The notes beneath the pieces were generated by a model. It did no database searches. It was given only the letters and a program-made list of their open reading frames with translations, and was not told the DNA's origin. Below, in pieces: positions 44,425 to 46,646 of a DNA stretch of 64,000 bases. Position 1 is the first letter of the stretch, and every line of letters starts with the position of its first letter. A program made the position numbers and the translations under genes. The DNA is from Escherichia coli (GTDB lineage: Bacteria; Pseudomonadota; Gammaproteobacteria; Enterobacterales; Enterobacteriaceae). The stretch lies in NCBI RefSeq assembly GCF_011045215.1, contig NZ_CP049201.1. One strand, 5' to 3'.

Positions 44425-44548
44425 CATTTTTTAACTGTTCTACCAAAATTTGCGCTATCTCAATTTGGGCCAGGAAAGCATAACTTAGACTTTCAAGGTT
44501 AATTATTTTCCTGGTTTATATTTGTGAAGCATAACGGTGGAGTTAGTG

Positions 44549-45244
44549 ATGCTGAAGCGTTTCTTTATTACCGGTACAGACACTTCTGTAGGGAAAACGG
44601 TGGTTTCCCGCGCATTGCTACAAGCGTTAGCCTCCCAGGGAAAAACGGTTGCGGGATATAAACCCGTAGCGAAGGGGAGCAAAGAGACACCCGAAGGGCT
44701 GCGTAATAAAGATGCCCTGGTGTTGCAGAGTGTTTCAACCATCGAACTGCCTTATGAAGCAGTTAATCCTATCGCGTTAAGCGAAGAAGAAAGTAGCGTG
44801 GCGCACAGTTGCCCAATCAATTACACCCTCATTTCAAACGGCCTGGCAAACCTGACCGAAAAAGTCGATCATGTCGTGGTAGAAGGGACTGGCGGCTGGC
44901 GCAGTCTGATGAATGATTTGCGTCCACTCTCTGAATGGGTGGTGCAGGAACAACTGCCGGTGTTGATGGTTGTCGGTATTCAGGAAGGTTGCATTAACCA
45001 TGCACTGCTAACAGCTCAGGCGATTGCCAACGACGGGCTGCCGCTCATTGGCTGGGTGGCTAACCGAATCAACCCAGGACTGGCGCATTATGCGGAAATC
45101 ATTGATGTGCTCGGTAAAAAACTTCCGGCACCGCTCATTGGTGAACTGCCTTATCTGCCGCGCGCCGAACAGCGTGAACTGGGGCAATACATCCGCTTAG
45201 CTATGCTGCGCAGTGTGCTGGCGGTAGATAGAGTCACGGTGTAA
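44549..45244 (+). CDS. ynfK: YnfK, dethiobiotin synthetase paralog (BioD2)
   Basis: ORF 44537-45244; start taken at [25 protein letters not shown]... (P-loop GTDTSVGKT) giving 231 aa. Confidence 0.85.
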
Positions 45245-46453
45245 CATCCGCGAGATTACCGACGCAATTACGCAGGCAATCAATAAACCGGGGAGTAGCT
45301 GATACTCCCCGGTCATTTCACATATCATCAACGTCGACATAATCGGTGCGTGCGTGGTTGCCGCCAACAGTGTCGCCATCCCGGTCAATCCGAGTAAAAG
45401 CGTAATTTCTTCGCCGTCAGGGAACCATAATCCCAGGCTACGACCATACAACATGCCAATGGCAAGACCGATAAATAGCGTCGGTGTAAAGACACCACCG
45501 GGCGCGCCGGAACCGCTACTCGCCAGCACGGCACACAGTTTACAAAGGAAGATCCCGGCAATGATCATTAACAGTGGCGGGGCGGTTAAAAAGGATTGTA
45601 CGGTGCTATAGCCGTTGCCCCACACTGCAGGTGTGAACAGGGAAAGCAGACCCACGATCAACCCGCCTAGTGCCAGTTGCCAGGGCGGTGCAAGTTTGAG
45701 ACTCACAAATCCACGATGACAGGCGTTCATTAACGTTAACAACAGTGGTCCGCACAGACCTGCCAGCACACCTGTACTGATAATCAGCGCATAGTCACGA
45801 GCCTGAACCGTCACTGAGAGTTGTACGCTGTAGAGTAACGCGTCGCTATGATTAATCAGATTGCTAACCAGCAATGCCACGACGGCGGAAATAATCACCG
45901 GGCCGAGAGAGGCCAACATCATAGTGCCAAACAGCACTTCGGCTATAAATAAACTGCCAGCAAGCGGGGCACGATAGGCCGCAGCCATTCCCGCCGCGGC
46001 CCCACAGGCGATCCATAATTTCCACTCCTGGCGTGGCGTAAAACGTTGGGCAAAACAGGAGGCGGCAAGGACAGCTAAAAGAATCATCGCACCTTCGCGA
46101 CCAATTGCACTGCCGCTGGTTACTACCAGCAGAGAGGCAAGCGATTTAACCAGGCTTGCTGCGTAATCAAACTGACCCTCGGTTTGCAACGCTTCCATAT
46201 AATCGGTCGGCGCATGAGGGCGTTGCTGGGTAAATTTCTGCCAGCCCATCAGCAACAAACCCGCCGCCAGTCCGCCGAGCGCCGGAGTTAGCAGCCGTCG
46301 CCAGGGGGAAAGGTTTGTCGCTGCATTGACCAGACTGCCGGAGTCATTATTGAGGAACAACCACTCCAGTAGCAGCATCGTATGACGAAACCCGGCAACG
46401 GCAAAGGCCGCGAGAATACCGACGACTGTTGCGATAAGCAGACGGCGGAACAT
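45197..46453 (-). CDS. clcB: ClcB (YnfJ), CLC-family voltage-gated chloride channel/transporter
   Basis: ORF 45197-46513; start taken at [24 protein letters not shown]... giving 418 aa; GREGA-type CLC selectivity motif (GREGAMIL). Confidence 0.9.
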
Positions 46454-46646
46454 AGTGCGCAGATCCGGATAGGTGTGTAGATGATGCATGAGCAGAAATG
46501 GGCAATGAAACACGGGCGACTATTTTGCGGCAAAAGAGGCCAGCTGCAAAAGCAGTGCGTGCTTTAAGAGATAAAAAACGTGACACTGTAACCTATTATT
46601 GCCGAATTGCGCGTAATCGCCACTATCCGGCAATATTACGGTGATC

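Follow-up and report, generated by a model that had tools for sequence, protein, structure and literature searches.

Convergent gene pairs and 3'-end structures

Huvet and Stumpf described 75 convergent overlapping gene pairs in E. coli (2014, PMC4161906). For convergent overlaps generally, the commonest phase depends on whether 4-nt overlaps are left out. Here we examine ynfK (bidA) and clcB, which meet tail to tail in a 64,000-nucleotide stretch of Escherichia coli DNA (contig NZ_CP049201.1 of assembly GCF_011045215.1; hereafter the window). As in other convergent overlapping pairs, both members are real genes, lie on opposite strands and overlap at their 3' coding ends through the position of their stop codons, an arrangement conserved between species. 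Unlike the 4-bp overlaps, however, theirs is 48 bp long and codon-aligned in phase, and the ClcB share of it holds the residue that aligns with the key transport-site tyrosine.

The pair also resembles excludons. ExcludonFinder, an RNA-seq survey of 2025, lists clcB-bidA in the convergent excludome of MG1655, where it is one of 165 convergent transcript overlaps detected in half or more of 58 RNA-seq samples, the two transcripts overlapping at their 3' ends (PMC12288877, Table 1). Membership in this class is a matter of transcript coverage here, and ynfK/clcB differs in that the coding regions overlap too, not the UTRs alone. A further relative is the class of Rho-dependent 3' ends sited directly after stem-loops that have no U tract (Dar and Sorek 2018, PMC6061677). 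The end of ynfK shares with it a predicted stable U-less stem-loop soon after the stop codon and, in published Rho data, a bicyclomycin-sensitive end; the sequence beyond is mildly, though not specifically, C-rich. What sets ynfK apart is that its stem-loop is encoded in the frame of the convergent neighbor, and so is bound by the ClcB protein sequence as well.

Two kinds of terminator offer more distant comparisons. Collision terminators, in the summary of Ju 2019 given by Wang et al. (2022, bioRxiv 10.1101/2022.10.23.513370), likewise pair convergent genes with a non-canonical stem-loop. As characterized in that summary, they are intergenic, serve both genes and are Rho-independent, none of which holds for the ynfK/clcB stem: the ynfK 3' end is Rho-sensitive, and the stem falls within clcB and precedes its stop by 88 nt. 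Because of this upstream position, the stem cannot terminate clcB productively. An intrinsic terminator would look similar in its GC-rich 11-bp stem and 5-nt loop, here 42 nt downstream of the ynfK stop, but the stem is followed by UCAUUUCAC instead of a U tract, and our terminator scan made no call on the + strand.

Geometry and identity of the overlapping genes

ynfK, encoding a dethiobiotin synthetase paralogous to BioD, occupies 44549 to 45244 on the + strand (231 amino acids plus TAA), the same extent as K-12 b1593 and the PGAP bioD. clcB, encoding a ClC-family Cl-/H+ antiporter, occupies 45197 to 46453 on the - strand (418 amino acids from the K-12 start). From both the open reading frame list and the sequence, ynfK ends with TAA at 45242-45244 and clcB with TAA at 45197-45199, read as tta on the + strand. 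The common stretch, 45197 to 45244, is thus 48 bp, or 15 codons plus a stop for each gene, and encodes YnfK residues 217-231 on the + strand and ClcB residues 404-418 on the - strand. Within it the codons are exactly antiparallel, with position 1 facing position 3 and position 2 facing position 2. Each stop codon falls within the reading frame of the partner on the opposite strand, as is characteristic of convergent overlapping pairs, and each TAA faces a TTA leucine codon: the ynfK stop faces ClcB Leu404, and the clcB stop faces YnfK Leu217.

The overlap is already known. The K-12 RefSeq annotation has the same 48 bp between clcB (b1592) and bidA (b1593), located in MG1655 at 1665315..1666571 (+) and 1666524..1667219 (-), respectively, and the transcript overlap appears in a published catalogue. 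The window and K-12 are identical throughout the overlap, and the locus is found in 5415 of 5426 complete E. coli genomes. The preliminary description had reported a 48-bp convergent overlap, which the open reading frames, the sequence, and both the K-12 RefSeq and PGAP annotations confirm. Its proviso that the length holds under the start assignments used was misplaced, because a tail-to-tail overlap is set by the stop codons alone. The clcB product is 418 amino acids in K-12 RefSeq and 430 amino acids in PGAP (strain ET350), the length obtained from an alternative ATG at 46489, and the overlap is 48 bp with either start.

Homology supports both gene identities. YnfK matches the E. coli BioD structures 1a82 and 1dts at E = 3e-65 (2.9e-65 for 1a82) over about residues 1-220, and its relatives carry the domains PF13500 and PF01656; the homology to the BioD family is full length, with the BioD structure sequences stopping opposite YnfK residue 220. 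ClcB matches ClcA structures at E = 2e-26 (1.6e-26) and is homologous across the transmembrane core of the ClC family, including the tyrosine. An ungapped alignment of the ClcB C terminus with residues 352-446 of Salmonella typhimurium ClcA (1kpl) places ClcB Tyr410 (TAC, 45224-45226, - strand) at ClcA Tyr445. On the + strand the same three bases are GTA, the codon for YnfK Val226. The gene names originally assigned to the pair are therefore right, in agreement with the BidA entry in K-12 RefSeq, and the suggested check of stops and frames against homologs comes out in their favor, since BioD fixes the YnfK frame to residue 220 and ClcA Tyr445 fixes ClcB at Tyr410.

Conservation and reciprocal codon constraint

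In the antisense, codon-aligned phase, only TTA, CTA and TCA produce a stop codon on the opposite strand. Their share is 3.0% in ynfK and 4.3% in clcB, which gives a probability of about 0.5-0.7 that 11-15 consecutive codons stay open by chance. An overlap of this length is therefore nothing unusual; its conservation in a single phase across at least 20 genera is more than chance would give. clcB is intact in 66 of 80 related loci, not counting the window, and in all of these it overlaps ynfK in phase by 27-66 bp. The observed lengths are 27 (loci L004, L065, and L072), 39, 45, 48, or 66 bp, all divisible by 3, and the arrangement is kept across the Enterobacteriaceae, including Escherichia, Salmonella, Citrobacter, Klebsiella, Enterobacter, Kluyvera, Raoultella, Buttiauxella, and others. 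YnfK is exactly 231 amino acids, with an invariant stop position, in 81 of 81 related loci. The clcB stop position differs among genera, and this sets the overlap length; at one locus (L012), clcB is a pseudogene. Where clcB is intact, the ynfK stop is TAA (52 loci) or TAG (14 loci) and never TGA, which occurs only at loci without clcB (8 of 15).

The last 11 residues of YnfK (221-231; 45209-45241, + strand) form an extension past the end of the BioD fold and account for 33 of the 48 overlap bases. By majority-residue fraction, conservation in the YnfK tail is 0.71, compared with 0.92-0.95 in the body, and the ClcB tail is likewise less conserved than the rest of its gene. ClcB Tyr410, however, is invariant in 62 ClcB sequences. 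Opposite it, YnfK codon 226 is GTA (60) or ATA (5) where clcB is present, and GCC, GCG, GTT, or GTA where it is absent. The neighboring codons behave similarly: Arg228 is encoded by AGA (40) or CGA (18), with GGA in 4 sequences, beside clcB and by CGT (4) or CGC (4) without it, and Ala231 by GCG (56) beside clcB and GCC (7) without it. The YnfK tail codons are thus pinned by clcB and relaxed once clcB is lost, and the constraint is reciprocal. Rare codons in YnfK (GTA for Val226, AGA or CGA for Arg228) are in effect imposed by a single key residue of the partner, ClcB Tyr410, and are released when that partner is deleted. Judged from these sequence comparisons, the overlap is a real, old, and evolutionarily stable dual-coding segment, with both genes coding into it. 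Although of minor importance in itself, it provides a clean worked example of long-lived dual coding between gene tails.

The origin of the YnfK tail can be considered in this light. A word-indexed protein search returned enterobacterial sequences only, all at least 86% identical, and among distant YnfK/BioD relatives found by exhaustive search, the C-terminal tails are short and unrelated to it in sequence. A 65%-identical YnfK orthologue that shares the mlc-ynfK synteny has no clcB downstream. On a reading that we hold to be unlikely, the 11-residue tail would owe its present sequence to overprinting antisense to the ClcB codons around Tyr410, and would later have gained a function of its own, since Asp227, Arg228, and Ala231 are kept even after clcB loss.

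A conserved stem-loop within clcB

Beyond the overlap, at 45287-45313 on the + strand, lies a conserved GC-rich stem-loop with arms at 45287-45297 and 45303-45313 and the loop GCUGA. It spans 42-70 nt past the ynfK stop, within clcB codons 381-389 (TGEYQLLPG), and has a predicted dG of -21.5 kcal/mol (z = -4.8). An alifold scan (RNA consensus folding) of ynfK and the clcB 3' end ranked it first. The stem-loop is present in all 67 clcB-intact sequences, with 92.6% of cells paired, compared with 20-43% when the pairing partner is slid, and its pairing and covariation scores were reached by 0 of 500 shuffles. Pair 45293/45307 is C-G in 35 sequences and G-C in 20, a compensatory change that couples ClcB Glu/Gln383 with the third base of Leu387; the covariation comes mainly from this one pair and may reflect no more than one or two events during evolution. 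Mid-stem mismatches occur in several species of Enterobacter.

Codon usage within the arms is also restricted. Of 185 degenerate clcB codons, all but two vary synonymously. The exceptions, Thr381 (ACC) and Pro388 (CCC), both lie in the arms; the probability that both frozen codons would fall among the approximately 6 eligible arm codons is roughly 9e-4. Gly382 is encoded by the rare codons GGG (50) or GGA (9), with GGC seen only once. The structure is not a generic feature of ClC genes, as the homologous codons of clcA form no such stem, nor is it a REP-like repeat element, as the stem is single copy within the window. Rfam holds no family for it (a chance match only, E = 0.57, far below the gathering score), and our literature search found no earlier description of it.

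The stem-loop can outlast clcB. It stays beside ynfK after clcB deletion at three loci (L046, L074, and L076), which may stem from one ancestral deletion. In Trabulsiella and Lelliottia it lies 8-12 nt past the ynfK stop, with clcB deleted on both sides of it.

Structure alone says less about the strand on which it acts. The terminator scan called the hairpin on the - strand only, with 12 pairs and the tail UAUUGAUUGC, which is U-rich in E. coli only; the Leu390/Leu391 codons vary elsewhere. The + strand tail noted above is set by ClcB Glu-Met-Thr codons at every clcB locus. Wobble pairs in the core stem favor the + strand (8 versus 29 unpaired cells of 504), whereas the terminal pairs favor the - strand. 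The wobble asymmetry at first seemed to settle the matter for the + strand, an argument that we dropped since mean single-sequence folding energies are near equal on the two strands (-17.4 versus -17.5 kcal/mol).

Transcript ends at the convergent junction

Published data place a bicyclomycin-sensitive ynfK-sense 3' end close to the overlap. The Rho coordinate converts to ~45254 (+ strand) in the window, with a Rho score of 4.2 and p = 1.5e-6 (Adams et al. 2021, PMC7815308, supplementary file 2). ynfK-sense coverage falls from 85 upstream to 11 downstream without bicyclomycin and from 292 to 159 with it. This coordinate is derived from 800-nt windows and lies upstream of the hairpin. We found no mapped RNA 3' end at the hairpin: the Term-seq table of the same study has none for ynfK or clcB, and the TERMITe supplements contain no 3'-end entry for either gene. 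Downstream, the + strand from 45260 to 45500 has a GC skew of -0.05 to -0.25, a mild and non-specific excess of C over G.

As there is no intergenic DNA, the 3' untranslated end of each mRNA must lie inside the coding sequence of its partner. The overlapping 3' UTRs predicted in the preliminary description are entailed by this arrangement, and the clcB-bidA entry in Table 1 of PMC12288877 bears them out at the transcript level. For ynfK, the 3'-end signal would sit within clcB. Past the ynfK stop the RNA is no longer covered by ribosomes and runs antisense to clcB, and there Rho would terminate it. The U-less stem-loop at 45287-45313 would most likely both define the mature ynfK 3' end and protect it against exonucleases, as in the class of Dar and Sorek, and it may additionally pause RNA polymerase. 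We therefore take the hairpin, as the likeliest reading, to form the 3'-end stem-loop of ynfK mRNA.

A counterpart for clcB was sought inside ynfK, where the - strand showed neither unusual structure (z = -0.2) nor a conserved consensus fold. The run of T at 45117-45122 (- strand) was considered as a clcB terminator and set aside, as it reflects ordinary Lys-Lys AAA/AAG usage. With no conserved 3' hairpin, clcB probably has a diffuse end inside ynfK, produced by Rho or by polymerase collision.

Alternative explanations for the overlap and the stem-loop

We consider it probable that the locus combines a dual-coding overlap with a ynfK 3'-end signal, Rho and stem-loop, embedded in clcB. The antisense interference suggested earlier for the two genes is plausible as a hypothesis. 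In its fullest form, anaerobic ynfK transcription under FNR and clcB transcription would disturb each other, whether because polymerases collide or because RNase III cuts the RNA duplex, and expression would become mutually exclusive as in an excludon. The recurrent transcript overlap across MG1655 samples is consistent with this, although that listing reflects coverage only. Also in its favor, ynfK forms a single-gene operon under direct FNR activation and is thus transcribed conditionally; polymerase collision is an established cause of termination between convergent genes in E. coli at large; and a rifampicin time-series study infers partial termination within ynfK, ~250 nt before the stop. 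However, the published data point to Rho ending ynfK-sense transcription just past the stop, which would limit rather than exploit antisense transcription into clcB. Biotin synthesis and chloride/proton exchange have no evident functional link, and ynfK with its 3' end has stayed unchanged through repeated losses of clcB, pointing to independence of ynfK from its partner. We found no experiment in the literature demonstrating mutual repression or RNase III processing for this pair, and there is no evidence in favor of the overlap as a dedicated regulatory device. We therefore regard the excludon-type explanation as unlikely. It is less likely still that overlap and hairpin form a conserved conditional switch, in which anaerobic, FNR-driven ynfK transcription runs into clcB and the hairpin, with Rho or collision, sets its extent and so tunes ClcB synthesis. 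If this were true, a single stretch of DNA would be selected simultaneously as ClcB sequence, YnfK tail, and regulatory RNA structure.

Other readings concern the hairpin and the overlap separately. The hairpin could instead act in the clcB mRNA, as an intragenic pause site or attenuator about 90 nt before the clcB stop or as a stabilizing 3' structure. The - strand call of the terminator scan, the equal folding energies, and a loop-proximal pair that in 29 sequences is mismatched (C-A) on the + strand but forms U-G on the - strand all fit such a role. Yet the hairpin lies within translated sequence, where ribosomes would melt the stem, and termination there would cut ClcB short of Tyr410. The U-rich tail is not conserved, core-stem substitutions leave G-U pairs on the + strand but A-C on the opposite one, and the stem stays beside ynfK once clcB is deleted, all of which make a role in clcB mRNA rather improbable. 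Drift of stop codons in a permissive antisense phase could also account for the locus without any function, the hairpin being a by-product of constraint on ClcB protein and codons. The openness of this phase, the wandering clcB stop, the weaker conservation of both tails, and the number of convergent overlaps in E. coli (PMC4161906) agree with such drift, and a neutral origin of the overlap itself is part of the explanation we favor. The hairpin, though, is left unexplained: the rare codons CCC (60 of 60) and GGG/GGA (59 of 60) are frozen and the Glu/Gln383-Leu387 third-base pair is compensatory, neither with a protein-level explanation, and the stem outlives clcB. Drift as the whole account is thus very unlikely. 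There is next to no chance that the overlap is an annotation artefact, with one stop or frame wrong. Start-codon errors often underlie long overlaps in bacterial annotations, but this one runs from stop to stop, its frames are fixed by homology on both sides, amino acid conservation and reciprocal codon constraint are seen in both tails, and two independent annotations concur.

The embedded hairpin, read as the 3'-end stem-loop of ynfK, illustrates how a gene without an intergenic region can hold a 3'-end signal in the frame of its neighbor. In recoding or synonymous designs of clcB, codons 381-389 should not be treated as free, and deletion of clcB likely alters 3'-end formation of the ynfK mRNA. 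At two Citrobacter loci that lack clcB, a similar stem is followed by a full T run.

Geometry and coding status of the overlap

The preliminary description reported a 48-bp convergent overlap between the ynfK and clcB coding regions, and this proved exact. In both the ORF table and the raw sequence, the ynfK stop (TAA, + strand) lies at 45242-45244 and the clcB stop (TAA, - strand) at 45197-45199, giving a common stretch of 45197-45244. The caveat that the overlap held "under the start assignments" was misplaced, because a tail-to-tail overlap is set by the stop codons alone. ClcB has 418 amino acids in the K-12 RefSeq record (ATG at 46453) and 430 in the PGAP annotation of the closest strain (ATG at 46489, strain ET350), with 48 bp of overlap under both; the open frame extends to a GTG at 46513 (438 amino acids; - strand, region 46451-46513). 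The MG1655 RefSeq annotation has the identical overlap between clcB (b1592; 1665315..1666571, +) and bidA (b1593; 1666524..1667219, -), as ynfK is now called (product, "dethiobiotin synthetase BidA"), and the locus was found in 5415 of 5426 complete E. coli genomes. It is an overlap of the ordinary convergent kind, annotated and catalogued before.

The two frames are antiparallel and codon-aligned, with position 1 facing position 3 and position 2 facing position 2, and each TAA stop is faced by a TTA leucine codon of the partner. Only TTA, CTA, and TCA codons make an opposite-strand stop in this phase (3.0% of ynfK and 4.3% of clcB codons), and the probability that an antisense run of 11-15 codons stays open is ∼0.5-0.7. 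In E. coli, Huvet and Stumpf counted 75 convergent pairs among 663 adjacent gene pairs that overlap (PMC4161906). The overlap itself is unremarkable; what stands above chance is the persistence of a single phase across the family.

As judged from homolog alignments, both tails are genuine coding sequence, and the stops and frames held up to this check. The sequences of the E. coli BioD crystal structures align with YnfK (E = 3e-65) and extend to its residue 220; residues 221-231 form an extension that accounts for 33 of the 48 overlap bases. ClcB matches ClcA (E = 2e-26), and when its last 102 residues are aligned without gaps to Salmonella ClcA (numbering checked on K-12 clcA), Tyr410 falls opposite Tyr445, the tyrosine coordinating chloride at the central site in ClcA structures. 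The Tyr410 codon (45224-45226) is within the overlap, and the residue does not vary among 62 distinct ClcB sequences. The two tails vary more than the rest of their genes, with majority-residue fractions of 0.71 for the YnfK tail versus 0.92-0.95 for its body, and 0.78 for ClcB residues 404-418.

Conservation and reciprocal codon constraint

A scan of one genome per species yielded 80 loci with close YnfK relatives, spanning genera from Escherichia to Klebsiella, Enterobacter, Kluyvera, Raoultella, and Buttiauxella; YnfK is 231 amino acids long, with an unchanged stop position, in all of them. Across the 66 loci that keep clcB, tallied together with the window, the overlap length is always divisible by three: 48 bp in 34 loci, 45 bp in 15 (Citrobacter, Salmonella), 66 bp in 13 (Enterobacter, Leclercia), 39 bp in 1, and 27 bp in 3 (L004, L065, and L072). 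In these last three, ClcB stops one or two residues past Tyr410 (411-412 amino acids), which suggests that the last 6-7 residues are dispensable or that the alleles are defective. Two loci have unexpected titles. L037 (CACSKA010000003.1, "Chryseobacterium sp. 18061") is probably mislabelled or contaminated, because it contains an enterobacterial ynfK-clcB locus (YnfK identity, 88%), and L013 ("uncultured Raoultella") has an overlap (45 bp) and tail of the Citrobacter type.

In 14-15 loci, clcB is gone outright or reduced to remnants. It was scored as absent or pseudogenised in L014, L017, L033, L040, L044, L046, L056, L060, L061, L074, L076, and L079, and as remnants in L012, L022, L050, and L053. 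Deletion or pseudogenisation has recurred within the Enterobacteriaceae (Kosakonia, Trabulsiella, Lelliottia, Pseudescherichia, Intestinirhabdus, and some Citrobacter and Raoultella), with ynfK intact throughout at 231 amino acids.

The codons used by YnfK differ between loci with and without clcB, so ClcB constrains YnfK codon choice. With clcB, YnfK codon 226, opposite ClcB Tyr410 (TAY), is GTA (60) or ATA (5), versus GCC, GCG, GTT, or GTA without it. Arg228, opposite Ser408, is AGA (40), CGA (18), or GGA (4) with clcB, of which AGA and CGA are rare arginine codons in enterobacteria, versus CGT (4), CGC (4), or AGA (2). Ala231, opposite Arg405 (CGC), is GCG (56) versus GCC (7), and the stop, opposite Leu404 (TTA/CTA), is TAA (52) or TAG (14) versus TGA in 8 of 15. 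The YnfK tail is also under some selection of its own, because Asp227, Arg228, and Ala231 persist as amino acids after clcB loss. Distant YnfK/BioD relatives have short C-terminal tails of unrelated sequence, and clcB is missing downstream of a 65%-identical YnfK orthologue that lies in ynfL-mlc-ynfK synteny. The pair adds, in a small way, a clean case of reciprocal codon constraint that relaxes when the partner is lost. In L014, L017, L033, L044, L060, and L074, all without clcB, the convergent neighbour of ynfK is often one same long ORF (380-481 amino acids), whose 3' end reads ...GTGAATATTCAGCGC on the + strand.

A conserved hairpin embedded in clcB

An 11-bp, GC-rich inverted repeat lies 42 nt beyond the ynfK stop, within clcB codons 381-389 (TGEYQLLPG), with arms at 45287-45297 and 45303-45313 and a 5-nt loop (-21.5 kcal/mol, z = -4.8). 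It occurs once in the window, and an Rfam search gave no matching family. The hairpin was seen in 67 of 67 clcB-intact sequences with 92.6% of cells paired; pairing falls to 20-43% on sliding the partner by 1-3 columns, and 0 of 500 column shuffles equalled its pairing or covariation score. A compensatory change is seen at pair 45293/45307 (C-G in 35 distinct sequences, G-C in 20), which couples the first base of ClcB Glu/Gln383 with the third base of Leu387. Only two of 185 well-conserved clcB codons with four- or six-fold degeneracy are free of synonymous changes across 62 sequences, Thr381 ACC and Pro388 CCC, and both are in the stem (rough probability, 9e-4); Gly382 is GGG in 50, GGA in 9, and GGC in just 1. 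A consensus-fold scan, sliding over all of ynfK and the 3' end of clcB, ranked the hairpin far ahead of any other structure in conservation (-16.4 kcal/mol, versus -8.4 for the second). The corresponding codons of the paralogue clcA form no stem. The overlap and hairpin are identical in the window and K-12, with two base differences in the stretch that separates overlap from hairpin (45246 and 45254), one of which makes ClcB residue 403 Met (Thr in K-12 and 95% of relatives). In L012, where clcB is a pseudogene, the inactivating TGA sits in the hairpin loop.

We propose that this conserved element, encoded within clcB, serves the ynfK mRNA as its 3'-end stem-loop, which we judge somewhat probable and which would be a second small addition. 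Its position counts in favour of the ynfK transcript: on the + strand it is in the untranslated region right after the ynfK stop, and on the - strand it is within translated clcB, 88 nt ahead of the stop. So do the unpaired core-stem cells, 8 (+) versus 29 (-) of 504, since non-Watson-Crick cells read as G-U on the + strand and as A-C on the opposite one. The stem CCGGGCAG...CTGCCCGG is kept, 8-12 nt past the ynfK stop, in Trabulsiella (L046, L076) and Lelliottia (L074), where the clcB sequence flanking it on either side is deleted, though this may reflect one ancestral deletion common to all three. The clcB-less Citrobacter L014 and L017 have a similar stem followed by a run of 7-8 T, and Kosakonia has gained new canonical terminators at the hairpin's place. 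The assignment is not certain: the terminal pairs fit the - strand better, the two strands have the same mean single-sequence folding energy, and some Enterobacter species have a mid-stem mismatch. A simple terminator scan called the hairpin on the - strand only, where the U-rich tail is not conserved.

Transcript 3' ends and possible interference

The stem does not qualify as a canonical intrinsic terminator on the + strand, because it is followed by UCAUUUCAC, fixed by ClcB Glu-Met-Thr codons, with no U tract. Adams et al. (2021) reported a Rho-termination region, "primary ynfK, antisense clcB" (best coordinate 1666514, -; score 4.2, p = 1.5e-6), with up/downstream coverage of 85/11 without and 292/159 with bicyclomycin (PMC7815308, supplementary file 2). 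That coordinate is window position 45254, 10 nt past the ynfK stop, from a method using 800-nt windows. The Term-seq table of that study has no entry for ynfK or clcB. Dar and Sorek (2018) found Rho-dependent E. coli transcripts ending precisely, directly past stable U-tract-less stem-loops that protect against exonucleases, with rut (Rho-binding) sites directly downstream (PMC6061677). The ynfK 3' end resembles this class in its hairpin without a U tract and its Rho sensitivity, and the + strand downstream of the hairpin has a mild, unspecific C-over-G bias. A Rho-dependent end is therefore the best-supported model: Rho would terminate the untranslated, clcB-antisense RNA beyond the ynfK stop, and the conserved stem would define or protect the 3' end of the ynfK RNA. 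Folding and the consensus-fold scan found no conserved structure inside ynfK for the clcB 3' end, and clcB transcripts probably end diffusely, via Rho or polymerase collision.

The preliminary description also envisaged overlapping transcript 3' ends and possible antisense interference. The former follow from the anatomy and have a catalogue entry, clcB-bidA being among the 165 convergent excludons of ExcludonFinder, each in at least 50% of 58 MG1655 RNA-seq samples (PMC12288877). A regulatory role for interference seems unlikely. ynfK is a single-gene operon directly activated by FNR (PMC3688515), and the conditions of expression may therefore differ between ynfK and clcB. Interference would tend to be curbed by Rho acting where ynfK ends, and repeated loss of clcB left ynfK unchanged.

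Reading the mlc-ynfK intergenic region by eye gave a candidate FNR site, TTGCGCTATCTCAA at 44450-44463, which lies ∼92 nt before the ynfK ATG and agrees with the consensus TTGAT-N4-ATCAA in 7 of 10 positions. It could be the site to which the ChIP and expression data of Myers 2013 (PMC3688515) point. Genomic SELEX of HusR (YnfL), a regulator encoded in the neighbourhood, gave a weak peak inside ynfK without a HusR box (intensity 72, the table's lowest; PMC12844172), at U00096.2 1,664,668, window position about 45150, ∼94 nt before the ynfK stop and near the overlap. Analysis of a rifampicin time series inferred a partial "Termination" event inside ynfK, ∼250 nt before the stop, with a log2 synthesis ratio of -2.4 and a longer half-life downstream (PMC10349824, supplementary data 4). 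This event, at U00096.2 1,664,825 (- strand in K-12; coordinate version inferred from neighbouring rows), or window position about 44993, could reflect collision with clcB-derived polymerases.
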